Position numbers and translations under genes: made by a program. Of a DNA stretch of 64,000 bases, positions 4,252 through 40,628 are shown in pieces (position 1 is the stretch's first letter; every line of letters begins with the position of its first letter). The DNA comes from a bacterium (lineage in GTDB: Bacteria; Patescibacteriota; Minisyncoccia; UBA6257; Colwellbacteraceae), in assembly GCA_029548485.1 (NCBI GenBank), contig JAKPNH010000002.1, positions 7,747-71,746 on the forward strand. Direction: 5' to 3'. The notes beneath the pieces are model-generated. The model was not told where the DNA came from and ran no database searches. It was given only the letters and a program-made list of their open reading frames with translations.

Positions 4252-5261
4252 GCATGACGACGAGCAAAAACAGGATTCTCTGCGGATTGGCGATATTCAT
4301 CGCGGCCGCGTTTCTTACTTTGAATGCGGCCGAAGCCGCGACCAATATCGCCGCCGACAATCCGCCGGCTTATCTTCATTGGGCTTGGAGCGACGTCGTC
4401 GGTTGGATCGATTTTTATTCGACGGACAGCGTCAACGTGACGACGACCGAGCTTCAGGGATATTCGAGATACAGCGCCGAAGGCGACGGAGCGGCTCCCT
4501 GGCAATACATATCTTTGAATTGCGCGAGCGGTCCCTCGGGATCGAGCTGCACACCCATAAGCTACAAGGTTTCCAACACCGGATCCGGAGAATTGTCCGG
4601 CTGGGCCTGGAGCGACGCCGTCGGCTGGATCAGTTTCAACTGCGAGAACGAAGGCACGAGCGGCTGCGCCGGACGCGACTATGGAGTGTCCGTCGTGAAC
4701 AGCTCCGATTACCCGGGCCAGGCGGAGCTGCAGGGATTCGCCTGGAACGACATCGCCGGCTGGATCAGTTTCAACTGCAGCAATCCCCACGTCGGCAACC
4801 CCGACGGCATTTGCGGCACAGTCGATTACAAAGTGGTGACCGGATGGAGCATCGAACCGATGGAGGGAGAAGTGATCTCGAGCACTTTCGACACCGGCGA
4901 GGCCGACGGCGCGGCCTACAACTACATTTTGTGGAAGGGCGTCACCAATTCCGGAGACGTCAGATTCCAATTCGCCACCTCGAATTGCGGCAACGGCGCC
5001 ACCAACCCCCCGGCCTGCGACCAAAACGTCGGCTGGGGCGGAGACAAGACTTCGGGCGACGGCGCTTTCCTGGGGCCGTCCGGCACCTCGGCTCCGGACG
5101 ATCTTTATTCGGGTTCGGGCCCGGACGTGCCCATACCTCTCAAAAACAGGGCGACGCACACCAATAAAAGGTACTTCCGCTACCGGGTCGTTCTTTACAG
5201 CGACATCACCCGGGCGCTTTCTCCGCGAATCGACGGAGTGATCGTCAATTGGAGCCCATAA
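4248..5261 (+). CDS. Secreted Trp/Gly-rich repeat protein inside the pilus operon (function unknown)
   Basis: ATG at 4248 gives MSMTTSKNRILCGLAIFIAAAFLTLNAAEA (signal peptide). Three copies of the motif WAWSD(V/A)VGWI(D/S)F. The track ORF 3792..5261 has an Arg-rich N-terminal extension that is not protein-like. Confidence 0.6.
   Translation: MSMTTSKNRILCGLAIFIAAAFLTLNAAEAATNIAADNPPAYLHWAWSDVVGWIDFYSTDSVNVTTTELQGYSRYSAEGDGAAPWQYISLNCASGPSGSSCTPISYKVSNTGSGELSGWAWSDAVGWISFNCENEGTSGCAGRDYGVSVVNSSDYPGQAELQGFAWNDIAGWISFNCSNPHVGNPDGICGTVDYKVVTGWSIEPMEGEVISSTFDTGEADGAAYNYILWKGVTNSGDVRFQFATSNCGNGATNPPACDQNVGWGGDKTSGDGAFLGPSGTSAPDDLYSGSGPDVPIPLKNRATHTNKRYFRYRVVLYSDITRALSPRIDGVIVNWSP
4380..4788 (+). 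repeat. Three intragenic DNA/protein repeats (GWAWSDxVGWISFNC units)
   Basis: Units at about 4380-4418, 4602-4644 and 4747-4788. The 21-mer ggctggatcagtttcaactgc occurs exactly twice (4623-4643 and 4768-4788). Confidence 0.8.
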
Positions 5262-5732
5262 ATGAAGAAGATCAATCAAAAAAATCGTAAAGGAGTGGCC
5301 ACTCTGCCGACGGTCATCATGATCGGCGGCATTATCATCGAGCTCGCCATCGCCGGAGTCGTCGTCGGCTACGCTTTCACCGAGAGCGGATCGGGCATGA
5401 GGCTTTCGGCCGAAGCGCTCTTTACCGCGCGCGCCGGTGCCGACGACGCCATATATAAGGTGATCAGGGGAGGTTATCAATCTTCGTATAACCTAATCGT
5501 TTCCGGAACGCCCGAAACTCCGAGCGAACGCAAAGCCGAAATCACCATCGAAAAGGATCCGGTTGATCTGGAAGGCCGGTTCGGCACCTGCAACGTCATC
5601 TGGGGATGCTATTTCCGGGTGCGGTCGCTCGGATCCGCCGCCAGCCGAAGAAGGAAAATAGAATCCGTGCTTTCGGTCGATCCGGCGACGCGGGAAATCA
5701 GGACCAGCTATATTAAAGAAATACCGGTTTAA
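5262..5732 (+). CDS. PilX-N-like pilus assembly / minor pilin-like protein
   Basis: Leader 'MKKINQKNRKG', then a hydrophobic helix VATLPTVIMIGGIIIELAIAGVVVG resembling the PilX N-terminal domain. No Glu at +5. Confidence 0.45.
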   Translation: MKKINQKNRKGVATLPTVIMIGGIIIELAIAGVVVGYAFTESGSGMRLSAEALFTARAGADDAIYKVIRGGYQSSYNLIVSGTPETPSERKAEITIEKDPVDLEGRFGTCNVIWGCYFRVRSLGSAASRRRKIESVLSVDPATREIRTSYIKEIPV

Positions 5733-5736
5733 CATC

Positions 5737-7272
5737 ATGGCCGAAACAACCATCAAATCGCGAAGCAAACTGGGGGCTCTCTGGAGACTGATCAACCCGT
5801 TCAAACCGGTGGGCGGCTTGAGTATCAACGATTCTTCTTTGAAATACGTCCGCATAGACGAGAACAACCGCCTGGTCAAAGCCTCTTTGAGGCTGCCGCC
5901 GGGATTGATCGAAGACGGAAAGATCAAGAACCGGGACTTGGCGAAGCAGGCGCTCGAGACTTTGAAATCCTACATCGCTCCTCCCCGCGGCGACCGGCGG
6001 ACGAACGTCATCGTTTCCCTCCAGGACAATCTGATCTATTCGAGAATTTTCAACGTTCCCAACTTGGAGGAAAAAGCTTTGGAAGAAGCGGCCGTGCTCA
6101 ATCTGCAGATGATTTCCCCGATAGATTTGAAGCAGTCCTATTACAGCTACCAGTCCGTCGGAATCACCGCGAACGGCGTCCGCCAGCTCGAGCTTCTCGG
6201 GGCTTTTATTCCGAACGGCATCGTCGACGACTGGCTTTCCCTTTTGAGGGAATCGGGATTCAGCCCGATCGCCGTGGAGTTCCAAAGCCTGAGCATGGTG
6301 AGGGCAATGGACTATCTGAAAATCACCGATCCGAAATCGACCTACGTGGCCTTGGTCGTCGCCGCCGACGGGCTTAATTTCGCCATCATCAAGAACAACA
6401 ACCTTTATTTCAATTATTTTTATTCCTGGAAATCCGTCGGTTCCGGCGGCCGGCAGATCGCTTTTACGGATCTGGAGCAAACCATTTTCACGGAAATAGA
6501 GCGCGTTCTGAATTTTGTCGGAGCGCGATTCGGCACGTCCATTTCCAGAATCTTCGTCGTGGCCGAAGGGCTCGGCGCCAAAATCGCCGCTTCGATCAAA
6601 ACACGGTTTCCCCGGCTCGACAGCCAGGAGTTTTCTTTGATGTCTTCCGCCGGATTGCCGGCGGATTGGGCGCCGGCTTTGGGATCGGCCATCAGAGGCG
6701 CCTTGCCCCGTTCGAAAGACCAATTCATCAGCTTGAACTCCATTACCGTCAGAGAAGAGTACTTTCAGGAACAGTCTTTGAGCCTGGCTTCCGCCTGGCG
6801 GAGCGCCTTTCTCGTTGTTTTGGCTTTCTTGGCGGTCCTTTACGGCGGAAGCGATTTGCTTTTGCGCCGGGTGAAAGAAGACCTTGTCGCCAGCCAAACG
6901 ATCAATTTCCCGGTGAACGAGAACCAGGAATACGCCGAACTGAAAGCCCAAGCCGACGGCTTCAACGCTTTGGTCAATTTGGTGGCGAGCGCCAAAGTCC
7001 GGGAAACGGTCATTTCGCCGTTCTTCCGGAAGATCAGGGAGCTCGCCGGAACCGACGCCACCATTTTGAGGATTTCCACCCAGCCGGTCAGCGGCACTGT
7101 CATTTTGAACGCTTCTTCTCCGTCCCTCGATATGTCGAGGAGATTTGTCGACAGACTGAAGGCCACCCCCCAGCTTCAAAGCGTCGAACAGCCGCTCGCC
7201 AATCTGGTGGTCGATCCGGACGGATCAGTGACTTTCATCGTCAGCTTCAAAGTGACGAGCCAGAATTTCTAG
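5737..7272 (+). CDS. pilM: Type IV pilus assembly protein PilM fused to PilN/PilO-like membrane segment
   Basis: 511 aa. N-terminal ~340 aa is an actin-like PilM fold. A TM helix (AFLVVLAFLAVLYGG) and a coiled periplasmic tail follow, as in PilN/PilO. Confidence 0.7.
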   Translation: MAETTIKSRSKLGALWRLINPFKPVGGLSINDSSLKYVRIDENNRLVKASLRLPPGLIEDGKIKNRDLAKQALETLKSYIAPPRGDRRTNVIVSLQDNLIYSRIFNVPNLEEKALEEAAVLNLQMISPIDLKQSYYSYQSVGITANGVRQLELLGAFIPNGIVDDWLSLLRESGFSPIAVEFQSLSMVRAMDYLKITDPKSTYVALVVAADGLNFAIIKNNNLYFNYFYSWKSVGSGGRQIAFTDLEQTIFTEIERVLNFVGARFGTSISRIFVVAEGLGAKIAASIKTRFPRLDSQEFSLMSSAGLPADWAPALGSAIRGALPRSKDQFISLNSITVREEYFQEQSLSLASAWRSAFLVVLAFLAVLYGGSDLLLRRVKEDLVASQTINFPVNENQEYAELKAQADGFNALVNLVASAKVRETVISPFFRKIRELAGTDATILRISTQPVSGTVILNASSPSLDMSRRFVDRLKATPQLQSVEQPLANLVVDPDGSVTFIVSFKVTSQNF

Positions 7273-7764
7273 GAAGACTTTGTTGAGGATCGACGCGTCG
7301 CGCTTGGAAATCGGTTTCAAAATAAAGTCCCCAGCTTGTTTTTTCTGGTTTTCTGGCCTCGCGCCGATGCGGATCCTCGCGAAGGCTCTGGTTTTGAGGC
7401 GATCGATGATCGATTGCACTCCTTTGTGTCCGGCCGAACCCCGGCCCGCGGAAAACTTGTAAGAACCGAGGACAATATCCGAATCGTCGTGGACGACAAT
7501 CAAATTTTCCGCCGGTATCCGGAAATATTTGACGGCCGCGGCCACGGCGATGCCCGAGTCGTTCATGAATCCGAGCGATTTCACGAGAATCATTCCCGGA
7601 GTTTTAATGAATTCGAACCCCTCTTTTTTGGAGGCTTGCCAATCGTTTTCTAGTTTTTCTTTTTTTGCCAGGAGATCCAAAAAAATCCTTCCCACGCTGT
7701 GATAAGTGTTCGCGTATTCTTCTCCCGGATTACCCAATCCGAAAACGATCTTTTGCTTGCCCAT
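7225..7764 (-). CDS. pth: Peptidyl-tRNA hydrolase
   Basis: Internal start MGKQKIVFGLGNPGEEY... (Pth signature GLGNPG...Y..TRHN-like, HDD). The upstream 34 codons of the track ORF overlap the lepB promoter region. Confidence 0.8.
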   Translation of the reverse strand: MGKQKIVFGLGNPGEEYANTYHSVGRIFLDLLAKKEKLENDWQASKKEGFEFIKTPGMILVKSLGFMNDSGIAVAAAVKYFRIPAENLIVVHDDSDIVLGSYKFSAGRGSAGHKGVQSIIDRLKTRAFARIRIGARPENQKKQAGDFILKPISKRDASILNKVFLEILARHFEADDESH

Positions 7765-7783
7765 CAGCGTCAATTGTATTAAA

Positions 7784-8341
7784 ATGCGACGGATGAAGCA
7801 ATTATTGGCCGTTTGGGAGTTCCTCGAAGTGGCGGCGATCGCCATTATCATCGCCTGCGCTTTCAAATTCTTGGCCCAGCCTTTTTTGGTTCAGGGCGCC
7901 AGCATGGAACCGAATTTCGACGACGGCGATTTCCTGCTCGTCGACGAAATTTCCTACCGCTTCAAAGAGCCGGAAAGGGGAGACGTGATCGTTTTCCACG
8001 CTCCGACCGAAGAGAAACAATATTACATCAAGCGGATCATCGGCCTGCCCGGAGAAACGATAGTCGTCGAAGATGGAGAGGTTTTTATAAACGGCGTCGA
8101 ACTCGAAGAGGAATACCTTCCTCAGGGAATGTCGACGAGGACTCTTCAGCAGAACGAATTCACGCTCGGCGCGAACCAATTCTTCGTTTTGGGAGACAAC
8201 CGGATCATGAGTTTCGATTCCCGGAACTGGGGCCCGCTCGATAGGGAAGAAATAGTGGGGGTGGTCCAGCTTCGGCTTTGGCCGCTTCAATTCCTGGATT
8301 CGTTGAAAGAACAAAGTTTTTACAGTGGCTACCTCCGCTAA
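7784..8341 (+). CDS. lepB: Signal peptidase I (S26)
   Basis: TM anchor, catalytic 'GASMEPN' Ser box, 'YIKRIIGLPGE' and 'GDNRIMSFDSRNWGP' boxes. Start chosen at MRRMKQ. Confidence 0.8.
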   Translation: MRRMKQLLAVWEFLEVAAIAIIIACAFKFLAQPFLVQGASMEPNFDDGDFLLVDEISYRFKEPERGDVIVFHAPTEEKQYYIKRIIGLPGETIVVEDGEVFINGVELEEEYLPQGMSTRTLQQNEFTLGANQFFVLGDNRIMSFDSRNWGPLDREEIVGVVQLRLWPLQFLDSLKEQSFYSGYLR

Positions 8342-9659
8342 AAAAACAGCCAAATCCGCGAAAACCGCCAAATTGACGGCTATTCAGGCTCCGAAAGGAA
8401 TGCACGATATTTTGCCGGAAGACGCCTGGTATTGGGAAAAGGTGGAGCAGGCGGTGAAAGACACGGCTTCGTTTTACGGATTCGACCGCATCCAAACCCC
8501 GATCCTCGAGAACGTCGATCTTTTCATAAGGAGCGTCGGCGAAGCGACCGACATCGTCGAAAAGGAAATGTATGTTTTGAAGACCCGCGGCGGCGATCAT
8601 CTGGCTTTGCGGCCGGAAATGACGGCGCCGGTGATGCGGGCTTATATCGAACGCGGATTGAGCCGCGTCAGCCAGCCGCTCAAAGTCTATTATTTCGGGC
8701 CGGCTTTCAGGCACGAAAATCCACAGGCCGGACGCTACCGCGAATTTTATCAAATGGGATTCGAGACGATCGGCGGGGAATCCGATCCGATCTATGACGC
8801 CGAAGTGATCGTCGCCGGATCGAGGTTTTTGGAATCGTTGAAGATCAAAAACCTGGCCATCCAGGTGAACAGCATCGGCTGCAAGGTCTGCCGGCCGAAT
8901 TACCGCAAAAAGCTCCAGGAATTCTACCGGAAAGAAACCGCCGTCGCCAAGAAAACCAAAGTCGTCTGCAAAGACTGCGAACGCCGCTTGGAAACGAATC
9001 CCTTGCGCCTGCTCGATTGCAAAAACGATCTTTGCGTTTCTTTGAAAGCCCAGGCGCCGAGCATTCTCGACAATCTTTGTTTCGCCTGCAGGCAGCATCT
9101 GAAAGGCGTTTTGGAATATCTGGACGAGGTTAACCTGCCTTACAGCCTGAATCCGTATCTGGTTCGCGGACTCGATTATTACAGCCGCACGGTTTTCGAG
9201 ATTTTCTCGGATCAAAGCGATTTAGCCTTGATGGGCGGCGGCCGCTACGATTATCTCGGCGAAGTCCTTTCGGGCAAGCCGATTCCGGCGGTCGGAGTGG
9301 CCGCGGGCATAGAGCGGATCATCGAGGTCGTCAAGACCAACAATCTTTTGCCTTCGCGCAAGCCTACGGACAAGGTTTTCGTCATCCACGTCGGCGATCT
9401 GGCCAAGAAAAAGGCTTTTGCCTTGATCGAGCAGTTCCGACGGGAAAACATCAGGGTTTCCGCGGCCCTCGGCAAGGATTCGCTTCAGGCCCAGCTCAAG
9501 GCGGCGGACAAAGAGGCCGCGCCTTTGAGCGTCATCATCGGCCAAAAAGAAGTCTACGAAGAAAGCGTCATCATCCGGGACATGAAAACCGGCAGCCAAG
9601 AAACCGTTCCCTTGAAGAAGATCAACGATACTCTCAAGGAAAAATTGAAAAAGCAGTAA
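8325..9659 (+). CDS. hisS: Histidyl-tRNA synthetase
   Basis: Class II aaRS motifs, 'PKGMHDILPED' N-terminal HisRS signature, and an anticodon-binding C-terminus. The true start may be a downstream TTG. Confidence 0.9.
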   Translation: MATSAKKTAKSAKTAKLTAIQAPKGMHDILPEDAWYWEKVEQAVKDTASFYGFDRIQTPILENVDLFIRSVGEATDIVEKEMYVLKTRGGDHLALRPEMTAPVMRAYIERGLSRVSQPLKVYYFGPAFRHENPQAGRYREFYQMGFETIGGESDPIYDAEVIVAGSRFLESLKIKNLAIQVNSIGCKVCRPNYRKKLQEFYRKETAVAKKTKVVCKDCERRLETNPLRLLDCKNDLCVSLKAQAPSILDNLCFACRQHLKGVLEYLDEVNLPYSLNPYLVRGLDYYSRTVFEIFSDQSDLALMGGGRYDYLGEVLSGKPIPAVGVAAGIERIIEVVKTNNLLPSRKPTDKVFVIHVGDLAKKKAFALIEQFRRENIRVSAALGKDSLQAQLKAADKEAAPLSVIIGQKEVYEESVIIRDMKTGSQETVPLKKINDTLKEKLKKQ

Positions 9660-9662
9660 TCC

Positions 9663-10070
9663 ATGGATTGCCTTTTTTGCAAGATCGCGGCCAAGGAAAT
9701 TCCGTCCGAAATCATCTATGAAGACGAGTGGGTAACGGCTTTTTTGGACGTCAATCCCCTGACCGAAGGCCATACCCTGATCGTTCCGAAAAAACACGCC
9801 GAAAACATCCTGGATTTGTCCGAAGCCGACATCGAACCGGTTTTTTTGGCGGTCAAAAAAGTGACCGCCATGCTCGAGAAAGCTCTGCGTCCCCGGGGGT
9901 TTACAATAGGCATAAATCACGGTAAAATCAGCGGGCAATCGATTGATCATCTGCATATCCACGTCATCCCGAGATACGCTTCGGACGGCGGAGGATCGCT
10001 CCATTCGGTGGTTCATTTTCCGCCGACCGCGAGCCTTAAAGAAACAAAGAAAAAGATTTTGAACGCATAA
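9663..10070 (+). CDS. HIT-family (histidine triad) nucleotide hydrolase
   Basis: 'HLHIHVIPR' HxHxHxx motif. 135 aa. Confidence 0.85.
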   Translation: MDCLFCKIAAKEIPSEIIYEDEWVTAFLDVNPLTEGHTLIVPKKHAENILDLSEADIEPVFLAVKKVTAMLEKALRPRGFTIGINHGKISGQSIDHLHIHVIPRYASDGGGSLHSVVHFPPTASLKETKKKILNA

Positions 10071-10286
10071 ATGGCTATCATCGTCAGAAAAAAAGAAGGA
10101 GAATCGGCCGGATCGCTGATTTTCCGTTTCGGAAAGAAAATCCAGCAATCGGGCGTTATTCAGGAGACGAAAAAAAGAAGATTCAAGAAAAGAGACGCCA
10201 ACAAGCGGTCCAAGCGGGTGGCCGCGCTCTACAAGGCGCGCAAGCGGAAAGACATCGAAAAAAAGAAGAAGCTCGGCTTGATGTAA
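10071..10286 (+). CDS. rpsU: 30S ribosomal protein S21
   Basis: 71 aa, very basic. The pattern MxxIxVRxxEsxxxxLxRFxK...RRxFxK...RKR matches S21. Confidence 0.6.
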   Translation: MAIIVRKKEGESAGSLIFRFGKKIQQSGVIQETKKRRFKKRDANKRSKRVAALYKARKRKDIEKKKKLGLM

Positions 10287-10290
10287 CTCC

Positions 10291-10743
10291 ATGGCCATTC
10301 TGCCGACCATCGAAGAGGATTTGAAATCAAGTATGAAGAATGCTGACTCGGAAAGAGTCGGCATTTTGCGTTTGCTCTTGTCGGCGATCCACAATGAGGA
10401 AATCGCCAAGCGGGGCAGGGGAGGAGAAGGCCCGCTCGATCCCGACGAGGAAATCGTCGTTTTGAAAAGGGAAGCCAAAAAAAGAAAAGAATCGATCGAA
10501 CTCTATCGCCAAGGAGGCCGGAACGATCTGGCCGAAAAAGAAGAGCGCGAATTCAGAGTCATCAGCCAGTATCTGCCTCCGGAAATGAGCCGCGAAGCCG
10601 TCGAAGAAACCGTGAGAAAAGTCATCGCTTCTGGACAAAAGGATTTCGGATCGGTCATGAAAGAAGCGATGAAAGAACTGAAGGGTAAAGCCGACGGAAA
10701 ACTTGTCGCCGAAGTCATCAAATCGGCGCTCGGAAGCGAATAA
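10291..10743 (+). CDS. GatB/YqeY-domain protein
   Basis: 150 aa with YqeY-family signature segments LRLLLSAIHNEEI and ...KGKADGKLV.... Confidence 0.75.
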   Translation: MAILPTIEEDLKSSMKNADSERVGILRLLLSAIHNEEIAKRGRGGEGPLDPDEEIVVLKREAKKRKESIELYRQGGRNDLAEKEEREFRVISQYLPPEMSREAVEETVRKVIASGQKDFGSVMKEAMKELKGKADGKLVAEVIKSALGSE

Positions 10744-11120
10744 TGGCTTTGGAGAAAAGGCTGGAATCTTTGGCCGAGAAAGCGCTTGTCGCGCTGCGCC
10801 GGCCGGATTCGTCGGTCTCTGTTTATCTTCTTCCCGACAGCCTGATGCGGAAGCTCAATTTCAAATACCGGCGGAAAGACAAGCCGACGACAGTCTTGTC
10901 GTTTGTCGAACCAAAAGTGCCCCATCCGGAAACCGATAGAAAAGTCCTCGGCGAAATATACCTCGCGCCGCGGTATATCTATAAAAACAAAGGAGACATC
11001 GACCGTTTGCTGCTCCACGGGCTGCTTCATCTTTTGGGGTATGACCATGCGCGAAAAAATGATAAAATAAGAATGGAAAACAAGGAGCGGGATTTGGCCC
11101 GCCGATTGTTGAAACAATAA
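10743..11120 (+). CDS. ybeY: rRNA maturation endoribonuclease YbeY
   Basis: 'HGLLHLLGYDH' zinc-binding motif. Confidence 0.85.
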   Translation: MALEKRLESLAEKALVALRRPDSSVSVYLLPDSLMRKLNFKYRRKDKPTTVLSFVEPKVPHPETDRKVLGEIYLAPRYIYKNKGDIDRLLLHGLLHLLGYDHARKNDKIRMENKERDLARRLLKQ

Positions 11121-11134
11121 TGTAATCCCGAAAT

Positions 11135-12358
11135 ATGGCTCAAAACACGGTTTTAGGATTGGATATCGGGTCGGCCAACATCAAAGCGATAGTGGCCGAA
11201 GCCCGCGGCGACAAAATGAAAGTCATCGCCGGATTCACCAGGGTTTCTTCCGGACTGCGCCGGGGATCGGTCGTGGAGATGGACGAAGTCTGCAAATCGG
11301 TGGCCGAAGTCTTGAACGAGGTTAAAGTCATTTCCCGATCGAGCGTCAAAAACATTTTTCTAAACATCGGCAGCGTCGACGTGAAATCCCAGATCTCCCG
11401 CGGCATCGTCGCCGTCGCCCGGGCCAATTCGGAAATCCACGAAGACGACATCGAACGCGTGGTCAAGGCTTCTCAGGCGATCAATATTCCCCAGAACCGG
11501 ACCATCCTCCATACGATCACCAAAGAATACGTGGTCGACGGCGTGAACGACATCCGCGATCCCGAGGGCATGATCGGCGCCAGGCTCGAAGTCTCGAGCA
11601 TGATCATCGACGCTTTCGCGCCGGCCTTGAAAAATCTCCAAAAATGCGTGGAAATCTCCGGAGGGAGTATCAGCGGATTGGTTTTCAATCCTTTGGCGGC
11701 GGCGAGATCGGTTCTCACCAAGAATCAAAAAGAGCTCGGCGTGGTTTTGATCGACATCGGTTTTGGAACGACGAGCCTCGTCATTTACGAGGAAGACAAA
11801 ATCTTGCATACGGCCATTTTCCCCGTAGGAGCGGGGCATATCACGAACGATTTGGCGATCGCTTTGAAAATTCCGGTTGAAACCGCCGAAAAACTGAAGC
11901 TCGCCTACGGCTACGCCCTTTCCAAGGAGGTTTCGAGCCGCGACACCATCGACCTCAAGAAAATAGATCTGACCGTCACCGGATCGCCCTCCAGGAAATT
12001 CATCGCCGAGGTCATCGAATCGCGAATCCAGGAAATATTCGAATTGGTTAACAACGAACTTCGGCTTATCGGCAAATCCGGCCGTTTGCCCGCCGGCGCG
12101 GTCCTTTGCGGCGGCGGAGCAAAAATGCCGGGGATCGTCGATTTGTCCCGCCAGGAACTCAAGCTTTCGACCCAGATCGGATTGCCGCAGGCCTCGTACT
12201 TCGAGCTCTCGACGAACGAACTCGCCGAATACCTCGAGCTTCCGGAGTGGGCCGTGCCTTTGGGCCTCGTCCTTTGCAGCAAAGACCAAGGCAGGGTAAA
12301 ATCCAAGCCAAGCGGCAGCCTGATCGTCAAAATATTCCAGAATCTCTTACCGGAATGA
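11135..12358 (+). CDS. ftsA: Cell division protein FtsA
   Basis: Actin-like ATPase with 'LGLDIGSANIKAIV' N-terminus. It lies directly upstream of ftsZ. Confidence 0.85.
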   Translation: MAQNTVLGLDIGSANIKAIVAEARGDKMKVIAGFTRVSSGLRRGSVVEMDEVCKSVAEVLNEVKVISRSSVKNIFLNIGSVDVKSQISRGIVAVARANSEIHEDDIERVVKASQAINIPQNRTILHTITKEYVVDGVNDIRDPEGMIGARLEVSSMIIDAFAPALKNLQKCVEISGGSISGLVFNPLAAARSVLTKNQKELGVVLIDIGFGTTSLVIYEEDKILHTAIFPVGAGHITNDLAIALKIPVETAEKLKLAYGYALSKEVSSRDTIDLKKIDLTVTGSPSRKFIAEVIESRIQEIFELVNNELRLIGKSGRLPAGAVLCGGGAKMPGIVDLSRQELKLSTQIGLPQASYFELSTNELAEYLELPEWAVPLGLVLCSKDQGRVKSKPSGSLIVKIFQNLLPE

Positions 12359-13545
12359 AAAAGAAAACTCAGAAGCGGAAAGCAACGACCAGACAGAGGA
12401 AATCGAGAACAGTTCCGGTGTTCGTCCACATCAAAGTAGTCGGCATCGGCGGCGGCGGCGGAAACGCCGTGACGAGAATGAGCGAAGACTTCATCAAGGG
12501 AGTCGAATTCGTGGCCATCAACACCGACACCCAGGATCTGGAATATTGCGAGGCCAAGCAGAAAATCAACATCGGCCGGAGCCTCACCAAGGGAATGGGC
12601 ACGGGCATGAATCCGGATCTGGGCAGGCAGGCGGCCGAGGAAAACCGTTCGGACATCGCCGAGGCCCTCCAAAACACGGATCTGGTGTTTTTGACCGCCG
12701 GCATGGGCGGAGGCACGGGCACCGGTGCCACGCCGGTCGTCGCCGAAATCGCCAGGGAAATGGGTATATTGACCGTGGCCGTAGTCACCAAACCTTTCGC
12801 TTTCGAAGGATCGCAAAGGATCAGGATCGCCGAAGAGGGAATCGCCAAACTGAAAGACAAAGTCGATTCTCTGATCATTATCCCGAACGACCGGGTTTTC
12901 AGCATCATCGGCAACGACACCTCGATCACCAAGGCTTTCATCAAAATCGACGAGATATTGAGGAATACGGTCAAAGGCATTTCCGAGATCGTTTCCATTC
13001 CGGGAATAGTGAACGTCGATTTCGCCGACGTCAAAATGATCATGGGAGGTGGTGGTCTGGCTTTTGTCGGCGTCGGCCAGGCGGCCGGCAACGACCGGGC
13101 CATCAAGGCGGCCACCCAAGCCATCAATTCCCCGCTTTTGGAGTTTTCGATCGATGGCGCCAAGGGCGTGCTTTTCGGGGTTTCTGGCGGCGCCGACCTA
13201 AAGATGGCCGAAATCAACGAAGCAGCCAAGCTGGTGACGGAAAACGTCGATTCCGGAGCGAAAATCATCTTCGGCGCCTATCACGACCGCAAGGTAAAGC
13301 AAGGGCAATTGAAAATTATCCTTATCGCCACCGGCTTCAACGGCCTGGTAAGCCGCGAAAGGGAGACTTTCAGCCTGTTCAGCCCGCTTCGGGAGGAGCC
13401 GTTAATGAAATCCGACGCCAAAAAGCCGGAAAAAGAGGCACTGGAGGAGAAAACGAGCGAAGAAAAGCCGGAAATCGGCAAAGCCGCCAAAGCGGACGAA
13501 GAAATCTGGGACATTCCGACATTTTTGAGAAAAAAACGCAAATAG
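12355..13545 (+). CDS. ftsZ: Cell division GTPase FtsZ
   Basis: ATG overlaps the ftsA stop (ATGA). Tubulin signature 'GMGGGTGTGATPVVAEIA'. The track ORF from 12106 is an N-terminal over-extension. Confidence 0.9.
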   Translation: MKKKTQKRKATTRQRKSRTVPVFVHIKVVGIGGGGGNAVTRMSEDFIKGVEFVAINTDTQDLEYCEAKQKINIGRSLTKGMGTGMNPDLGRQAAEENRSDIAEALQNTDLVFLTAGMGGGTGTGATPVVAEIAREMGILTVAVVTKPFAFEGSQRIRIAEEGIAKLKDKVDSLIIIPNDRVFSIIGNDTSITKAFIKIDEILRNTVKGISEIVSIPGIVNVDFADVKMIMGGGGLAFVGVGQAAGNDRAIKAATQAINSPLLEFSIDGAKGVLFGVSGGADLKMAEINEAAKLVTENVDSGAKIIFGAYHDRKVKQGQLKIILIATGFNGLVSRERETFSLFSPLREEPLMKSDAKKPEKEALEEKTSEEKPEIGKAAKADEEIWDIPTFLRKKRK

Positions 13546-13667: not shown

Positions 13668-15791
13668 ATGCCGCCAAAAAAGTTTCGGAATCATCTGACC
13701 AGCGTGACGAAAAGAGACGGGGAAACAACTCCTTTCGATAAAGCCAGAATCGAGCAAGCCATTTACAAAGCTTTGACCGCGACCGACCAGGGAGGAATCA
13801 AGCTGGCGAAACAATTGGCGGACAAGGTGGTGAGGATTTTGAACCGGCGCTTCAAAAAGAACGAAGCTCCGCACGTCGAGCAGATCCAGGACATCGTCGA
13901 GGAGATCCTGATGCTCGAAGACCTGACGGAAACCGCCAAGGCTTATATCCTTTACCGCGAACAGAGGAGGGCGATCAGGGAAGCGAAGACCGCCACCGAC
14001 GAAGCTTCGGAGTTGATCGACAGCTATCTCAAGGAAGTCGATTGGGAAGTGAAGGAAAACAGCAACATGGCTTTTTCCCTCCAGGGACTGAACCATTATG
14101 TCGCTTCGCACGTCACCAAGAAATATTGGTTGAACAAGATTTATCCGGTTGAAGTGAGGAAAGCCGTGGCCGACGGCGAGATCCACGTGCACGATCTCGA
14201 CATCCTCGGGCCCTATTGCTGCGGCTGGGACGTCGGAGACGTTTTGCTTCGCGGATTCGGAGGGGTTTTCGGAAAGATCCAGTCGCGTCCGGCCAAGCAC
14301 TTGCGTACGGCCTTGGGCCAGCTCGTCAATTTCTTTTACACGCTCCAAGGAGAATCCGCCGGCGCCCAGGCGTTTTCCAATTTCGATACTTATCTCGCGC
14401 CTTTCATCCGTTACGACGGCCTGACGTTCAAAGAGGTGAAGCAATGCCTTCAGGAATTCCTGTTTAATTGCAACGTGCCGACGCGCGTCGGATTCCAGAC
14501 TCCGTTTTCCAATATCTCCCTTGATCTGGTCGTGCCGAGTCACATGAAAGGCCTGCCGATAATCATCGGCGGCCAGCACAAAGAAGATGTCTACGGTTCG
14601 TTCCAGCCGGAAATGGATATCTTCAACAAAGCTCTTTGCGAGGTTTACGTCGAAGGCGACGCCACCGGCCGGGTTTTCACTTTCCCGATTCCGACTTACA
14701 ACATCACCAAGGATTTCGATTGGGACAATCCGAATTACGAAGGCGTTTGGCAGATGACCGCCAAATACGGCATTCCTTATTTCTCGAATTTCATCAATTC
14801 CGACATGAAGCCCGAAGATGCGCGCTCGATGTGCTGCCGACTCCGGCTCGACAACCGCGAACTCTACAAGCGGGGCGGAGGACTTTTCGGGGCCAATCCT
14901 TTGACCGGATCGATCGGCGTCGTCACCATCAATATGCCGCGGATCGGCTATCTCTCGAAGACCAAAAAAGAGTTTTTTGAAAGGCTTGATCGGATCATGG
15001 ATATCTCGAAAACCAGCCTGGAAATAAAAAGAAAGGCTCTGGAGGATCTAATAGAAAAAGGGCTTTATCCGTATTCGCGCTATTATCTCAGTGAAGCGAA
15101 AAAATTGAGGAATTCCTATTGGGCCAACCACTTTTCGACGATCGGGCTGATCGGAATGAACGAGGCGCTTTTGAATTTCCTGGGTGTCAGCATTTCCGAC
15201 AAGAAGGGCATCAAGTTCGCCGAGGAAGTGCTCGATTTCATGCGCGATCGATTGAGCTCTTACCAGGAAGAAACGGGGAACCTTTACAATCTCGAAGCCA
15301 CTCCGGGAGAAGGAACTTCTTACAGGCTTCCCTTGAAAGACAGGAAAGAATATCCGGATATCATCACCGCCGGAGAAAAGGATCCGTATTACACCAATTC
15401 CACCCAGCTTCCGGTCAATTACACCGACGACATTTTCGAGGCCATCGGGCTTCAAGACGGCCTGCAAACCAAGTATACCGGCGGCACGGTTTTCCACGCC
15501 TTCCTCGGGGAAGCTTTGCCGGACAGCGAGGCGGTGAAATCGACCATTAAGACCGTTTTCGGAAAATTCCGGCTGCCGTATTTCACCCTGACGCCGACTT
15601 TTTCCATTTGTCCGTCCCACGGATATATCGCCGGAAACCATCAATTTTGCCCGTATTGCGAAACCGAACAGACCTGCGAAATCTACTCGCGGGTGGTCGG
15701 CTTCCTCCGTCCGATCCAGCAATGGAACAAGGGCAAGCGCGAGGAATTCAACCAGCGGAAGATGTTCAAGGTGGCGGCCAAACAGGATTAG
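13668..15791 (+). CDS. nrdD: Anaerobic ribonucleoside-triphosphate reductase (class III)
   Basis: ATP-cone N-terminus, C-terminal zinc ribbon CxxC...CPYC, and a glycyl-radical segment. 707 aa. Confidence 0.9.
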   Translation: MPPKKFRNHLTSVTKRDGETTPFDKARIEQAIYKALTATDQGGIKLAKQLADKVVRILNRRFKKNEAPHVEQIQDIVEEILMLEDLTETAKAYILYREQRRAIREAKTATDEASELIDSYLKEVDWEVKENSNMAFSLQGLNHYVASHVTKKYWLNKIYPVEVRKAVADGEIHVHDLDILGPYCCGWDVGDVLLRGFGGVFGKIQSRPAKHLRTALGQLVNFFYTLQGESAGAQAFSNFDTYLAPFIRYDGLTFKEVKQCLQEFLFNCNVPTRVGFQTPFSNISLDLVVPSHMKGLPIIIGGQHKEDVYGSFQPEMDIFNKALCEVYVEGDATGRVFTFPIPTYNITKDFDWDNPNYEGVWQMTAKYGIPYFSNFINSDMKPEDARSMCCRLRLDNRELYKRGGGLFGANPLTGSIGVVTINMPRIGYLSKTKKEFFERLDRIMDISKTSLEIKRKALEDLIEKGLYPYSRYYLSEAKKLRNSYWANHFSTIGLIGMNEALLNFLGVSISDKKGIKFAEEVLDFMRDRLSSYQEETGNLYNLEATPGEGTSYRLPLKDRKEYPDIITAGEKDPYYTNSTQLPVNYTDDIFEAIGLQDGLQTKYTGGTVFHAFLGEALPDSEAVKSTIKTVFGKFRLPYFTLTPTFSICPSHGYIAGNHQFCPYCETEQTCEIYSRVVGFLRPIQQWNKGKREEFNQRKMFKVAAKQD

Positions 15792-16636: not shown

Positions 16637-17047
16637 TCCGACATAGCTCAACGGTAGAGCGTCTCCCTGTGAACCGTCTTGTCCGATTGCTATAATTCAA
16701 AACAGTGGCGGGCAAGAGAATCTATGCCGACAGGCGCGAAGAATTGATCAGAACCGTCGGCATCACGCAGCCTTCTCGAGTAATCGAGATTGAATAATGG
16801 GGTGAATTCGGGGAAGTCCAATAATAGGATAATCCCGAGCCAATTCCCGCACATTGCGGGACAGGTGTAGAGACTATCTCGAAAGAGAGTAGTTCCCGCA
16901 GTTTTATATAAAACTGCGGAGGACGAAGCGCCTCATTCCGCACTCCGCAAAAACAGCGGAACGGAAATGATATAGTCCACCCTCGGTGGCAACATCGAGA
17001 TAAGTGTAAGGAGCGGGTTCCTGGTTCGAATCCAGGTGTCGGAGCCA
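16637..17047 (+). tRNA. tRNA-Asn(GUU) interrupted by a group I intron in the anticodon loop
   Basis: 5' exon 16637-16670 = TCCGACA-TA-GCTC-AACGGTA-GAGC-G-TCTCC-CTGT. 3' exon 17007-17047 = TAA-GGAGC-GGGTT-CCTGG-TTCGAAT-CCAGG-TGTCGGA-G-CCA. Spliced, the anticodon loop is CUGUUAA, discriminator is G73, and acceptor and T-arm closely resemble bacterial tRNA-Asn. A junction two nt earlier would instead give a UGU (Thr) anticodon. Confidence 0.7.
16671..17006 (+). ncRNA. Group I self-splicing intron (about 336 nt, no ORF)
   Basis: 5' splice after U, last intron nt is G. Core elements resemble the Tetrahymena/IC-type core: 'ATTGCGGGA' (P4-like), 'AGAGACTA' and 'GATATAGTCC' (P7 strands). Confidence 0.65.
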
Positions 17048-17102
17048 GATTGAGATAGCTCAAATATAGCTTCTGCTATAAAGAACTCTTAAGCTTTTTA
17101 CT

Positions 17103-18152
17103 TTATTCATTGAGCCAAAACCATAATTGATTTTTAAGCTCTTGATTCAGAATGTGTGTATCAGCGTGGGATAAAACACCAAGGTATGATTGTAGTGATT
17201 GTTCAACAGTTTTATAAGGAATTCGTCCATCTTTATATTCTTTGACACGCATTTTTAGTTTTTTAAATACTCGGTTTTTAGTCTTGGTGCGAAGCTGAAG
17301 ATGGTATGGCAAAACAACGTAACCGAGAAAATCTATACCCTGCCTTAATTTGCGGATGGAAACTTTATTGGGATGGAGTTCAAGACAAAGCCTTTGTCTA
17401 AGAAATGATTTTATCGGAGAGATTATCTTTTCAAGATAATACGGGTTATCAGCCAAGATTACAAAATCGTCAGTATAGCGAAGATAATGCTTTATTTTAA
17501 GACCATGTTTTATAAATTGGTCGAATTCATTCAGATAAACGTTTGCGAAAAGCTGGGAAGTAAGATTACCAATGGGCACACCCTTCTGCTCAAAGAGGTT
17601 GGAGTATCGGGAGGAGAAACTTTCTATAACTTCCCGCAGCAGCCACATTGTGTCGGGATCCTTAATTTTTTTAGCAAGAATATTAAACAAGATATAGTGG
17701 TCAATCGTTTCAAAGAACTTCTTAATATCGCACTTCAAAGCAAAACATGGCTTTCGTACGTTACCACTTACTTTTCGAGTAAGGTCCCGCAGTGTTATTA
17801 TGCCCTTGTGGGTTCCTTTGTTAATGCGACAAGAAAAGGAATTGGAGATAAACGATTTTTCAAAGAGAGGATTAATAATTGCGAAAATCGCGTGATGCAA
17901 TACGCGATCTCGTACGGCGGCTTTGTGTATATGACGTTGTTTTGGGTCTTGAATCCAAAATGATGTATAGAGACCGTGTTTATAGCGTCTTGCCTTCAGG
18001 TCGCGGTGCAATTGAAAGATATTTTGCTCAAGCTGCCATTCGAATAATTGGACGTCATCCTTGCCCTGTTTATCACTTTTAAATTTCTCCCAGGCAGCAA
18101 AGAGGTTTTCTAATGAAATGATTTGGTCAAAAAGGTTCCTATAAGTTTTCAT
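17103..18152 (-). CDS. Diversity-generating retroelement (DGR)-type reverse transcriptase
   Basis: About 350 aa. N-terminus 'MKTYRNLFDQIISLENLFAAWEKFKSDKQGK'. Motif 4 'IGNLTSQLFANVYLNEFD' is the [I/L]GxxxSQ DGR hallmark. Motif 5 is 'YLRYTDDFVIL'. No maturase or endonuclease domains. Confidence 0.8.
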   Translation of the reverse strand: MKTYRNLFDQIISLENLFAAWEKFKSDKQGKDDVQLFEWQLEQNIFQLHRDLKARRYKHGLYTSFWIQDPKQRHIHKAAVRDRVLHHAIFAIINPLFEKSFISNSFSCRINKGTHKGIITLRDLTRKVSGNVRKPCFALKCDIKKFFETIDHYILFNILAKKIKDPDTMWLLREVIESFSSRYSNLFEQKGVPIGNLTSQLFANVYLNEFDQFIKHGLKIKHYLRYTDDFVILADNPYYLEKIISPIKSFLRQRLCLELHPNKVSIRKLRQGIDFLGYVVLPYHLQLRTKTKNRVFKKLKMRVKEYKDGRIPYKTVEQSLQSYLGVLSHADTHILNQELKNQLWFWLNE

Positions 18153-18157
18153 AATAC

Positions 18158-18508
18158 ATGGAAGAATTAGACATACCAATTTTAAAAAAGGCTTATAATC
18201 TGTATAAAGACTTTTACGGTTTCCGCAATAATGTTCCCAGGCAGGATAGATTTACTATCTGGCAACGGTGTGAAAATATAATTTTGGAGATGCTAGAAAA
18301 TATCATCTACGCAAGTCAACTGTCAAAGTCGGAAAAATTACCAGTTTTACAGAAAGCCAGTCTCGAATTAAGCTTTCTCCGTGTTTTCCTTCGTCTTTGC
18401 AAAGAAACAAAAGTATTAGATACGAGAAAGTACATCTATTTAGAGGAAGCAGTAGACGAAATAGGTAGAATGCTTGGCGGATGGATAAAATCAACTAAAG
18501 ACCATTAA
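18158..18508 (+). CDS. Avd-like four-helix-bundle protein (23S rRNA IVS protein family), DGR accessory
   Basis: 116 aa. Helical pattern 'AYNLYKDFYGF...RQDRFTIWQ...' and C-terminus '...EEAVDEIGRMLGGWIKS', typical of the Avd/IVS family. Divergent from the RT with starts 5 nt apart. Confidence 0.6.
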   Translation: MEELDIPILKKAYNLYKDFYGFRNNVPRQDRFTIWQRCENIILEMLENIIYASQLSKSEKLPVLQKASLELSFLRVFLRLCKETKVLDTRKYIYLEEAVDEIGRMLGGWIKSTKDH

Positions 18509-18870
18509 ATAAAACGCCCTCCGTGAAAGAGGGCGTTTATTAAACAGCAATAGAGAGTGAACTGCCGCGAGGCGGCGACACCGATGATGTCATTGCGGTT
18601 ATCATTCCAGTAGTTGTTGACATTCAGCCCGTCAGCGTCAAAGTTGCCGACGTTGCCTTCATTGGTTACGATCTGTGTATCTGAAAGAGTGGTTGTGCAG
18701 TTTGATGAGTTTAACGCAAGTATACCGTAGTCTACTGTGCCGTCAGAAACGCTGACTGATACATTTTCTAATAAAACTGTGGCAGCTACCGTTGCGCTGT
18801 CCGAAGCATGGGCCGAGGGGATTAAGACCATCGCGAGTGTCAGAAGAGAAAACAAAATATTTTTCTTCAT
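18505..18870 (-). CDS. Small secreted protein, Asn-rich C-terminus (candidate DGR target)
   Basis: Signal peptide MKKNILFSLLTLAMVLIPSAHA. C-terminus 'NVGNFDADGLNVNNYWNDNRNDIIG'. The last codons are encoded by a 10-bp-stem hairpin. Confidence 0.4.
   Translation of the reverse strand: MKKNILFSLLTLAMVLIPSAHASDSATVAATVLLENVSVSVSDGTVDYGILALNSSNCTTTLSDTQIVTNEGNVGNFDADGLNVNNYWNDNRNDIIGVAASRQFTLYCCLINALFHGGRFI
18512..18538. terminator. Perfect GC-rich hairpin at the avd stop / 3' end of the small secreted gene
   Basis: AAACGCCCTC-cgtgaaa-GAGGGCGTTT. Could act as a bidirectional terminator or as a DGR target-recognition hairpin. Confidence 0.5.
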
Positions 18871-19047
18871 AACAAATTTATTTAATTTTTAATGTTAAAA
18901 AACAAATATCTTTAATATCATACAAAAAGAAAAGACGGATGACAACGATTTTTTAAGCTTGGATGTGGATAACTGCGGAAAAATCCGTTTTTTAAGGAAG
19001 TTGTTACGAGATAAATTATCGCTTATATAGCTTGGTTGAGTCTCTTT

Positions 19048-19518
19048 TTAATTCAAAACTACAATCGCCGCATTCAATATAGAGGCGAAGCTTACCCACA
19101 ATAGATAAGGGATAAGTAGGTAGGATGCTAATTTCGACAGAGGATAAAGCTTTTTTATTGTCATAACGATCAGTATCCACATGGAGATAATCACCAATAA
19201 AGCCAGCGCCGGAGATTTTAAGCCGAAGAAAATCGGTGACCAAAGGAAATTAAGACTCAATTGCGCGAGAAAATATTTCCCTGCGATTTTGACATTTTTA
19301 TTGTTCCAACCCTTTCGCCAGATTAAGTAAAAAGATAATCCCATCAGGAAGTACAATAGCGTCCAAACCGGCCCGAATATCCAATTAGGCGGAGAAAAGG
19401 TCGGTTTATTCAAACCTACATACCACGTGGGAATAGAAGGAATGGTAAACGCGCTTCCGATTATGCCCGCCAATTCGCAACCGACGATGGATATGACGAG
19501 TTTATATGAGTCTTTCAT
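19048..19518 (-). CDS. tspO: TspO/MBR family tryptophan-rich sensory protein
   Basis: Five TM helices. 'FGPVWTLLYFLMG' and 'YLLIPYLLWVSFA' signatures. Confidence 0.8.
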   Translation of the reverse strand: MKDSYKLVISIVGCELAGIIGSAFTIPSIPTWYVGLNKPTFSPPNWIFGPVWTLLYFLMGLSFYLIWRKGWNNKNVKIAGKYFLAQLSLNFLWSPIFFGLKSPALALLVIISMWILIVMTIKKLYPLSKLASYLLIPYLLWVSFASILNAAIVVLN

Positions 19519-38875: not shown

Positions 38876-38917
38876 CTTGATTCCAGCCGGTTTTGATGAT
38901 AATGATTCGTTTAGTTC

Positions 38918-39271
38918 TTGATAAAGGAGGCGAAATCCTTGAAGTTGTTCTTCCTTTTGATGTTATTGACGGGAACGATCGCCGGCCTCGCGGAAAAATG
39001 CGCGGAGCTCAAAAACAGGGAGCCCTTGAGAACGATCGCTCCCGTGATCGTCGTTTTTCCGCTCGTGATAGCGATAGTGAAAATGTTTCCGGAGGCGACA
39101 ACCGATATGGCCGCACCCGACACTTGGCCGGGTTGGATCGCTTCTCTCGCAGTCAGCCTCGCGGGCAATTTCTGGGCGAGCCGCGTTTGCCCCGAATGGC
39201 ATTTCGATCCGATCGGTTGGGCGAGAGAGCTCGCGAAACGCGTCAAATCGAAAATATCCCGCAAGCGTTGA
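38918..39271 (+). CDS. Hypothetical membrane or secreted protein
   Basis: Only protein-like frame between queA and rsmE. The overlapping track ORF 38893.. is Arg-rich junk upstream of the rsmE start. Confidence 0.3.
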   Translation: MIKEAKSLKLFFLLMLLTGTIAGLAEKCAELKNREPLRTIAPVIVVFPLVIAIVKMFPEATTDMAAPDTWPGWIASLAVSLAGNFWASRVCPEWHFDPIGWARELAKRVKSKISRKR

Positions 39272-40467: not shown

Positions 40468-40628
40468 TCTTTGGATTCTCCATGAGCTGTCTTTGGTAAT
40501 CGCCTCCCTGCGGGACGATTAAGGTTCTGTTTCCATTATAGCCCGATTACCGCTTTAGCTGCACAAGTGGATAACTCCGGCGTTTGCCGTATCGGAAAAC
40601 AAAAGGTAAAATGAATCAAACCACATAT

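Follow-up and report, generated by a model that had tools for sequence, protein, structure and literature searches.

A Patescibacteria-type diversity-generating retroelement that has probably lost its target, with a template-repeat remnant fused to the start of a secreted-protein gene

Of the diversity-generating retroelements (DGRs) of CPR genomes, 90% have the B3 architecture, TR-(avd)-RT (PMC5758913). This architecture is defined by a template repeat (TR), an avd gene on the reverse strand, and a reverse transcriptase (RT) gene on the TR strand (PMC5758913, Figure 5 legend). In the standard CPR layout, a target gene with a C-terminal variable region (VR) comes first, followed by a spacer of ~350–450 nt, the TR, avd on the opposite strand, and the RT gene. 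In intact relatives, the TR RNA is copied by the RT–Avd complex into cDNA, with random bases placed opposite the template adenines, and the mutated cDNA takes the place of the VR.

The element described here is located in a 64-kb stretch of DNA (the window) and belongs to this known kind, the CPR-type DGR. The most probable reading of the locus, to which we assign a probability of roughly 85%, is a Patescibacteria-type DGR (TR, inverted avd, and RT) that has lost its target by deletion, leaving a TR remnant fused to a secreted-protein gene.

The RT gene (positions 17103–18152, minus strand) is intact and encodes 349 residues counted from the ATG; the mechanical open reading frame (ORF) reaches a TTG at 18179. 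RVT_1 is the only Pfam domain in the protein (E = 2.8e-22), in agreement with the preliminary description, which had noted a length of about 350 residues and no maturase or endonuclease domains. The best match in the Protein Data Bank is 8ub7_A, with 173 bits over residues 2–337, while the best group II intron RT reaches 92 bits. The 8ub7_A chain is bRT of Bordetella phage BPP-1. In this alignment, motif 4 of the RT (IGNLTSQLFANVY) is matched with IGSLTSQLFANVY, the DGR motif IGxLTSQ of the RT is aligned, and YTDD is positioned opposite YMDD, which confirms the YTDD and DGR motif 4 first noticed in this frame. More than 7000 homologs of the RT were found. Among the best 120, nearly all have 349 residues and are 64–84% identical to it, and the named organisms are all Patescibacteria.

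Other classes of RT were considered and rejected. For a group II intron RT/maturase, the score with TIGR04416 is 150.6 bits, below the cutoff of 300, and no group II intron RNA was found in an Rfam scan of the window. For a retron, Abi, or DRT defence RT, the scores are also under the family cutoffs (56 vs 235 for retron St85, 64 vs 390 for Drt2, 76 vs 200 for Drt3a, and 25 vs 250 for AbiA), and the matches to PADLOC defence RTs reflect generic RT-domain similarity. A grouping with retron, Abi, or group II enzymes had been named at the outset as evidence against a DGR. No NCBIfam model for group II, retron, Abi, or Drt enzymes reaches its cutoff, and the RT is most probably a DGR-type enzyme, as judged from these comparisons.

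The neighbor of the RT, a protein of 116 residues encoded at 18158–18508 on the plus strand, is an Avd (accessory variability determinant). It matches the Pfam bAvd family (PF22296) with an E value of 5e-20 and the NCBIfam equivalog model NF033474 (DivGenRetAVD, 'DGR protein Avd') with 91.7 bits, above the cutoff of 80. It is 88–90% identical to the Avd proteins of two relatives, L051 and L053. The assignment to the Avd family made in the preliminary description, for which a comparison with PF22296 had been proposed, is thus upheld by both models. The start of avd diverges from that of the RT gene on the opposite strand, with a gap of 5 nt. This head-to-head arrangement had been regarded as unusual. 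It is instead the CPR norm, and the order along the minus strand (TR at 18654–18559, avd on the plus strand at 18158–18508, and RT at 18152–17103) is that of the B3 architecture, which is present in every relative examined.

In L001, L003, L005, L053, and L054–L057, the RT is 48–84% identical to that of the window and the TR is located directly past the 3′ end of the inverted avd. Nine relatives have sufficient sequence, and each of them has a VR no more than 2.5 kb from the RT. Within the repeat, each VR/TR pair differs (7–16 mismatches per pair) at TR adenines only, and the AAY positions of the TRs are the diversified positions of the VRs. The closest relatives, with RTs 83–84% identical to that of the window, are ordinary DGRs with TR/VR pairs. 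The targets of the relatives have 275–377 residues and no signal peptide, and they have no counterpart at the window locus. The VR–TR spacer upstream of the TR is conserved among the relatives and absent from the window. The sequence of L051 ends at its TR.

An adenine-rich repeat near the RT is also found in the window, at 18559–18654 on the minus strand. It has ~96 nt, lacks ~32 nt at its 5′ end, and can be aligned base for base with the TRs of L053, L051, L001, L003, and L005. It adjoins the 3′ end of avd, the position equivalent to that of the TRs in the relatives, and the AAY codons, the adenine-rich core, the 3′ end, and the neighboring hairpin are all retained. The repeat ends with CGGCAG, as in TRs, and not with the CGGAAG of VRs, and it does not have the stop codon that closes the VRs of the relatives (…RKF*). 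Six independent assemblies (ENA, NCBI, two from JGI, Logan, and a second one from ENA) have the same sequence here, and the absence of variation at adenine positions across the repeat in these consensus sequences is what is expected of a TR. This segment, which encodes the Asn-rich tail of an ORF of 121 residues, had been interpreted as a VR; based on its alignment, position, and ending, it is in all probability the template repeat. One assembly (L011) has a gap of 10 N within the TR.

A plain repeat search of the 64-kb window produced no TR/VR pair. Adenine-tolerant diagonal scans were carried out with TR candidates from 12–24 kb and 16.5–19.7 kb against the whole window in four orientations, and yielded only A-rich noise. 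When the search was extended by 19 kb of flanking sequence, to a total of ~83 kb, no VR with mismatches at TR adenines was found in any orientation. The best 40-nt windows have at least 7 non-A mismatches, compared to 1 in the positive control, L053. Scans of public genome and metagenome contigs with the 3′-terminal, A-free part of the TR (TCGGTGTCGCCGCCTCGCGG) returned unrelated GC-rich genomes only and did not retrieve the source organism itself, so that they carry no information on a VR elsewhere. A cluster of YTTGA repeats, which follows the VRs in the relatives, occurs once in the window (38866–38945), with no VR-like sequence upstream. The preliminary description had seen no template copy, which it supposed to be remote or degenerate, and had counted the lack of a TR/VR pair against its reading. 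The window indeed holds no second copy and no pair was found in the ~83 kb, but the tail itself appears to be the TR.

The 121-residue ORF (18505–18870, minus strand) has a signal-peptide-like start, an Asn-rich tail (NVNNYWNDNRND), a promoter-like site upstream (18945–18917, minus strand), and no Pfam match. A secreted protein of 167 residues from sister Colwellbacteria (P0122), the locus of which is syntenic in L045–L050, is 95% identical to the ORF over 61% of its length. The first 74 codons (18649–18870) correspond to the signal peptide and the start of the mature part of this protein. They are followed in frame by the TR and by read-through over the hairpin. A three-way comparison of the window, the sister genome L046, and the TRs of L053 and L051 places the junction at 18649–18654, where the six nucleotides AACGTC are common to the secreted-protein gene and the TR. 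The N-terminal 74 residues do not resemble the DGR targets of the relatives. Where a target gene with a VR at its 3′ end is expected of a DGR, there is a foreign fragment joined to a TR. The ORF is a chimera of the start of a secreted-protein gene and a 5′-truncated TR, fused in frame. The signal-peptide ORF and its Asn-rich tail are real, as first noted, but its proposed role as a small target is not borne out.

A GC-rich hairpin (18512–18538) separates the TR from the avd stop codon. It has a stem of 11 pairs followed by T-rich sequence, and is terminator-like in both directions. Across six loci, pairing holds in 100% of the cells, with compensatory changes at three pairs, a result matched by only 3 of 500 shuffles. 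Hairpins of unrelated sequence are found at the equivalent place in L054, L055, and L057. It is therefore a conserved, TR-proximal, terminator-like stem. The hairpin at the end of the ORF had been likened to that of the Bordetella VR. The stem itself is confirmed, but the comparison is rejected because the hairpin follows the TR, and not a VR, in all loci.

The segment that contains the RT, avd, and the truncated TR (17065–18648, 37.8% GC) is lineage-specific. By blastn, window positions 18990–18649 are 92% identical to positions 7881–8222 of the sister genome L046, with the homology ending at 18649, and the two breakpoints relative to the sister genome are at 18649/18648 and 17064/17065. At this site L046 has 4.6 kb (8223–12805) with the rest of the 167-residue gene and five other genes. 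The TspO and Cache genes (19.0–20.1 kb) and the 5′ part of the 121-residue ORF are syntenic in the sister genome. The AT-rich region of 17.1–20.1 kb, described earlier as island-like, is thus not a single island; its lineage-specific part is limited to 17065–18648. The segment does abut a tRNA gene, as had been stated, but this is not a plain one: the tRNA (16637–17047, plus strand), which lies outside the DGR, is split by a 336-nt group I intron (Rfam RF00028 at 16754–16999, 58.5 bits). It was found by ARAGORN with introns allowed and missed at default settings. Its 3′ end and the right boundary of the DGR segment are 17 nt apart, and the tRNA is also present in the sister genome.

These observations suggest a history for the locus. 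An ancestor in which an entire cassette lay between the gene for the periplasmic binding protein and the tRNA would have undergone a single deletion. This deletion, or an equivalent illegitimate recombination, would have joined codon 74 of the secreted-protein gene to the TR via AACGTC. The event would have removed the rest of the secreted-protein gene, several further genes, the DGR target and its VR, the VR–TR spacer, and ~32 nt at the start of the TR. Left over would be the RT, avd, the TR-proximal hairpin, and ~96 nt of the TR, read in frame as an Asn-rich tail. The element is presumably no longer able to diversify anything in cis, and the TR remnant may still be transcribed, from the promoter of the truncated gene to the hairpin. 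No genome was found in which the supposed intermediate, with its cassette still complete, occupies this site.

A counterpoint to a remnant is provided by the proteins. The RT and avd frames are complete and under purifying selection, with dN/dS of 0.01–0.06 (0.055 for the RT against its closest relatives and 0.01–0.03 for Avd against L051 and L053), but dS is saturated, and the ratios are therefore silent on the recent past. Such strong purifying selection is not what would be expected of a long-dead remnant. The intact, strongly constrained RT and avd would point to a loss that is recent or to an ongoing role with an unlinked target.

The second of these possibilities, that the cis target was deleted and the element is active in trans, with a truncated TR, a captured promoter, and cDNA homing to one or more unlinked VR genes, is considered unlikely. 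The constraint on the two proteins and the retention of the TR 3′ end, adenine-rich core, and hairpin are consistent with it, and documented cases exist of DGRs that have multiple targets or trans-acting ones, according to a passage in PMC8632793 that cites Wu et al. 2018. The gap in the TR of L011 could also come from a second, near-identical copy. On the other hand, there is no VR within ~83 kb, whereas in the relatives it is always at most 2.5 kb from the RT (9/9), and the conserved spacer upstream of the TR is lost. A protein search with the 121-residue ORF gave no VR-like protein from this organism, a weak argument as the word filter needs three shared 5-mers. A further protein search with the C-terminal part of the L053 target yielded nothing that passed this filter, which shows how little power the first search has to detect a remote VR. 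It is less probable still that the fusion is a snapshot of DGR target turnover, or that the element already serves an unlinked target. If turnover is the case, the TR now stands downstream of a secreted protein's promoter, signal peptide, and N-terminal domain as the result of a microhomology rearrangement. With RT and Avd intact, the repeat could be expressed as both protein and template RNA, and a later duplication or self-homing would make a new diversified surface protein.

The original proposal, that the 121-residue protein is a small DGR target with its Asn-rich C terminus as the VR and a remote or degenerate TR, is largely refuted, and we regard it as very improbable. The ORF is open, with a plausible signal peptide and a promoter-like site upstream, and the gene calls of every assembly include it. 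However, its tail has AAY where the TRs of the relatives have AAY and their VRs are diversified, it lies exactly where a TR does, beside the conserved hairpin and the 3′ end of avd, it has the TR-type ending and no VR-type stop, it is invariant in the six assemblies, and an unrelated gene supplies the 74 residues at the N terminus of the ORF. There is equally little to recommend a recruitment of RT–Avd to a role independent of any TR/VR pair, for instance in cDNA synthesis of the defence type, with the TR remnant being irrelevant. The proteins are intact in the absence of a linked target and the RT resembles the PADLOC defence models, but only in the generic RT domain; moreover, no Drt, retron, or Abi model reaches its cutoff, no effector gene is adjacent, and TR/VR pairs are present in 9/9 relatives, the closest of which are ordinary DGRs. 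An assembly artefact (a chimeric contig) is scarcely credible. TR/VR repeats often break or confuse assemblies, and L051 stops at its TR, but the junction and its sequence are identical in the six assemblies, which derive from different samples and assemblers.

Target loss by deletion, the preferred reading, has consequences for annotation and for DGR biology. The head-to-head arrangement of RT and avd should be treated as the norm in CPR genomes, an Asn/AAY-rich open frame beside avd as a template and not a target, and an RT, Avd, and TR lacking a VR as an orphaned cassette. The locus would be a clean example of target loss from a cassette through a 6-nt microhomology junction, and indicates that a TR can end up fused to foreign coding sequence. 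Our knowledge of the DGR mechanism is unchanged by it.

The closest known systems are the CPR B3 DGRs (Wu, Zimmerly et al., Nucleic Acids Res 2018, PMC5758913). The element in the window agrees with them in how TR, inverted avd, and RT are ordered and oriented. Its RT falls within a large clade of Patescibacteria enzymes, AAY codons are frequent in its TR, and canonical TR/VR pairs occur in its closest relatives. In contrast to these elements, the copy in the window has no target or VR in ~83 kb, and its TR is truncated by ~32 nt at the 5′ end and fused to a foreign gene fragment.

The Bordetella phage BPP-1 DGR is similar in its RT, which is homologous end to end (8ub7_A), with IGxLTSQLFANVY and Y[MT]DD, and in having an Avd-family accessory protein, although a direct sequence match between the Avd of the window and Bbp7 (4dwl) is not significant (E = 0.33). 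The BPP-1 element is arranged as mtd-avd-TR-brt on one strand, whereas in the window avd is inverted and separates the TR from the RT. In BPP-1 the GC hairpin comes after the VR; in the window it comes after the TR and the avd 3′ end. With its RT, Avd, and TR but no VR, the locus is also comparable to inactivated or incomplete DGR cassettes. It differs from them in that both protein genes are intact and the event can be reconstructed to the nucleotide (AACGTC), thanks to the availability of a syntenic sister genome and of close relatives that are intact.

The RT gene is located at 17103-18152 on the reverse strand (349 residues when counted from the ATG, with the mechanical ORF extending back to a TTG at 18179), and the avd gene (18158-18508, forward strand, 116 residues) begins 5 nt away from the start of the RT gene. 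A DGR-type RT with a head-to-head Avd protein was proposed in the preliminary description, and this observation is correct, based on the profile and structure matches and on the scores of other RT models below their cutoffs. The RT matches RVT_1 in Pfam (2.8e-22). Its closest solved structure is chain 8ub7_A (173 bits, E=9e-50, residues 2-337), with IGNLTSQLFANVY positioned opposite IGSLTSQLFANVY and YTDD opposite YMDD; from its sequence (KRHRNLIDQITTWENLL...), we take this chain to be the bRT of Bordetella phage BPP-1. In comparison, the top group II intron RT match has 92 bits, and none of the group II, retron, Abi and Drt models of NCBIfam is matched at its cutoff. Matches to defence RT models in PADLOC reflect generic RT similarity. 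Comparison of the 116-residue protein with bAvd, as suggested earlier, gives PF22296 at 5e-20 (Pfam), and the NCBIfam equivalog NF033474, 'diversity-generating retroelement protein Avd', is matched with 91.7 bits (cutoff 80).

The database contains more than 7000 homologues of the RT. Nearly all of the best 120 have exactly 349 residues, with 64-84% identity, and those among them with a named source are all from Patescibacteria (Colwellbacteria, Nealsonbacteria, Sungiibacteriota, Staskawiczbacteria and Paceibacterota). The window RT protein itself is annotated in a Candidatus Colwellbacteria MAG. The GC content of the cassette is 37.8%, compared to 50.5% for the window, and resembles that of the RTs of the relatives (37.5%).

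TR/VR pairs were searched for in relatives carrying homologous RT and avd genes, using a diagonal scan in which a mismatch is allowed only if one of the two partners has A. Pairs are found in L001 (TR 5475-5603, VR 4996-5124), L003 (TR 5459-5579, VR 4980-5100) and L005 (TR 5446-5568, VR 4887-5009), with one pair in each of L054-L057. In L053, the closest relative having a VR (RT 84% identical), both repeats were located by inspection. Within the repeats, each pair has 7-16 mismatches, all of them at adenines. In every pair the TR, recognised as the copy rich in adenine, lies 30-45 nt past the inverted avd gene, on its 3′ side. The VR forms the final ~40 codons of a gene for 275-377 residues, ~480-590 nt upstream, in all eight pairs but one: in L054, the VR is on the other side of the RT and on the opposite strand.

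The Asn-rich tail of the 121-residue ORF, previously read as a variable region, is the template repeat of the window. The segment 18559-18654 (reverse strand) aligns base for base with the TRs of the relatives (VGNFDADGLNVNNYWNDNRNDIIGVAASRQ in the window, VNVGNFDENGLNVNNYWDDNRNYNIGLAASRQ in the L001 TR), and it ends with the TR-type CGGCAG, whereas VRs end with CGGAAG followed by TTC and the stop codon. The identity of 18480-19060 across six independent assemblies of the organism, bar one 10-N gap, is consistent with this assignment. A TR, earlier reported as not visible, is therefore present in a 5′-truncated form. It has six differences from the TR of L051, another relative, and four of these are synonymous in the VR frame as read from the alignment, which fits a coding constraint on the window TR until recently. 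The 10-N gap sits in the middle of the TR in L011 (JGI 3300037067), and a DGR-less sister strain (L050) is found in the same sample; a second near-identical copy, low coverage or a mixture of strains could each account for the gap.

The 121-residue ORF (18505-18870, reverse strand) had been regarded as a small DGR target. Instead, it is a chimera of a P0122-like start and the truncated TR. No domain is found by Pfam, and its N-terminal part shows no resemblance to the targets of the relatives. A database search returns the ORF itself and one further protein, P0122 (167 residues, Colwellbacteria), with 95% identity across the first 61% of the query. The P0122 gene has a syntenic position in sister genomes, in the order SUF operon, HTH regulator, Cache, TspO, P0122, genes for 195, 158 and 523 residues, NUDIX, a periplasmic binding protein, and NrdG and NrdD. 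Comparison by blastn with the sister genome L046 aligns window 21000-19010 with 5791-7792 (86%, upstream synteny), 18990-18649 with 7881-8222 (92%, start of the P0122 gene), 17064-16561 with 12806-13308 (85%, split tRNA), and 16546-15003 with 13672-15212 (86%, downstream synteny). The sole segment specific to the window lineage is 17065-18648, in place of which the sister carries 4.6 kb. The locus at L046 8001-11210, lost from the window lineage, encodes the 167-residue signal-peptide protein and then proteins of 195, 158 and 523 residues (the last with a weak fn3 match), and resembles a small operon for secreted or surface proteins, with no Pfam annotation.

At the left junction, GAAGGCAACGTC is followed by AATATC in the sister and by GGCAACTTTGAC in the window, and the TR of L053 and L051 reads CCGTGTTAACGTC followed by GGTAACTTTGAT. 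The crossover is placed by this alignment within AACGTC (18649-18654), as this hexamer is common to the sister, window and TR sequences. The window lacks the first ~32 nt of the TR, together with the conserved VR-TR spacer and the target gene. The VR reading frame is kept across the fusion by chance, and since a stop codon is absent from TRs, the ORF continues through the hairpin to a TAA overlapping the avd stop.

The tRNA gene on the other side of the element (16637-17047, forward strand) is interrupted by a 336-nt group I intron (RF00028, 58.5 bits), and is shared with the sister (L046 12806-13308). It is not called by default ARAGORN; with introns allowed, the program gives tRNA-Thr(UGU), placing the intron at 33/34 (16669-17004). 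ARAGORN is shown to mis-call Patescibacteria tRNA-Asn(GUU) genes whose intron is at 35/36 in just this manner, through a 2-nt boundary shift (PMC13011429, mSystems 2026). The same boundary ambiguity is present here (CT/GT/GAACC ... AAG/TG/TAAGG), and the discriminator base, a G, agrees with Asn. Elsewhere, the window contains three direct copies of a 39-nt unit, GCCTGGAGCGACGCCGTCGGCTGGATCAGTTTCAACTGC (4383-4778; 74-100% identical, spaced 222 and 135 nt), and a SAM riboswitch (40626-40727, forward strand; RF00162, 57.9 bits).

A first scan compared TR candidates lying at 12-24 kb with the complete window in all four combinations of orientation, using 60-nt windows with no more than 2 non-A mismatches, and found no VR partner. 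A relaxed scan (45-nt windows, at most 5 non-A mismatches) gave A-rich noise alone, and the window TR has no partner in the window plus ~19 kb of extra flank (L099, L102/L103). In this last scan, the best 40-nt windows other than the TR itself have at least 7 non-A mismatches, while the same query finds the TR and VR of L053, a different organism, with 1 mismatch. The ~83 kb around the RT is thus free of a VR. Beyond this region, two pattern scans of public sequence collections did not recover even the organism itself and are uninformative, and a further protein search yielded no candidate. In the left flank, L102 6320-8242 (~2-4 kb past the end of the window) is a 1.9-kb stretch without called genes between L31 and a response-regulator gene, and this gap is also present in L104.

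In the relatives, the VR stop codon is directly followed by 3-6 copies of YTTGA with a spacing of ~8-12 nt (L001 5129-5190, L003 5108-5160, L005 5013-5080, L057 1604-1660, L053 181-240); ~0.02 such clusters are expected per 64 kb of shuffled sequence. The cluster may serve this DGR clade as a recognition element on the target side. The flanks of the window TR have no comparable cluster, and an unrelated one is located at 38866-38945. A ~85-nt piece of the VR-TR spacer has opposite orientations in L051 (1-105) and L053 (430-545), and in L053 it lies between the arms of the inverted repeat TTGCTTGTCT / AGACAAGCAA. Either the segment is invertible or the difference is an assembly artefact at a contig end, as the L051 contig starts there.

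The element is, with a probability of about 0.85, a B3-type Patescibacteria DGR that lost its cis target by microhomology-mediated deletion or equivalent recombination, an event that would have removed the target via the AACGTC microhomology. Both genes are full length, with dN/dS relative to the closest relatives of 0.055 for RT and 0.01-0.03 for Avd, although dS is saturated and the ratios therefore give no date for the loss. It is unlikely that the element still serves an unlinked target. The TR remnant is probably still transcribed, with termination at the hairpin, as a promoter-like site of the truncated gene (TTGTCA-17-TATGAT, 18945-18917, reverse strand) lies upstream of it.

On both strands, T-rich sequence comes after the hairpin stem (18512-18538, 11 pairs). 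Across six loci, 60/60 pair cells are standard and three pairs have compensatory double changes; only 3 of 500 shuffles match this, and slid registers are 30-60% paired. L054, L055 and L057 also have a hairpin at this position, though of unrelated sequence. The hairpin is conserved at the TR/avd junction. The simplest explanation is a bidirectional terminator that ends both the avd mRNA and the TR RNA, and it may also form part of the functional DGR RNA.

Elements of this kind, and with this architecture, have been published before. The head-to-head layout, initially described as unusual, is the normal CPR arrangement. An inverted avd gene is directly upstream of the RT in all relatives with a contig reaching upstream of the RT (L001-L006, L051, L053 and L057, the last from its ORF listing), and in L054-L056 the TR is upstream of the RT at an equal distance. 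The window order of TR, inverted avd and RT agrees with CPR architecture B3, TR-(avd)-RT, with parentheses indicating the reverse strand (Wu et al. 2018, PMC5758913). The hairpin does not correspond to that of the Bordetella element, to which it had been likened: the Bordetella hairpin flanks the VR, whereas that of the window is located between the TR end and the avd stop.
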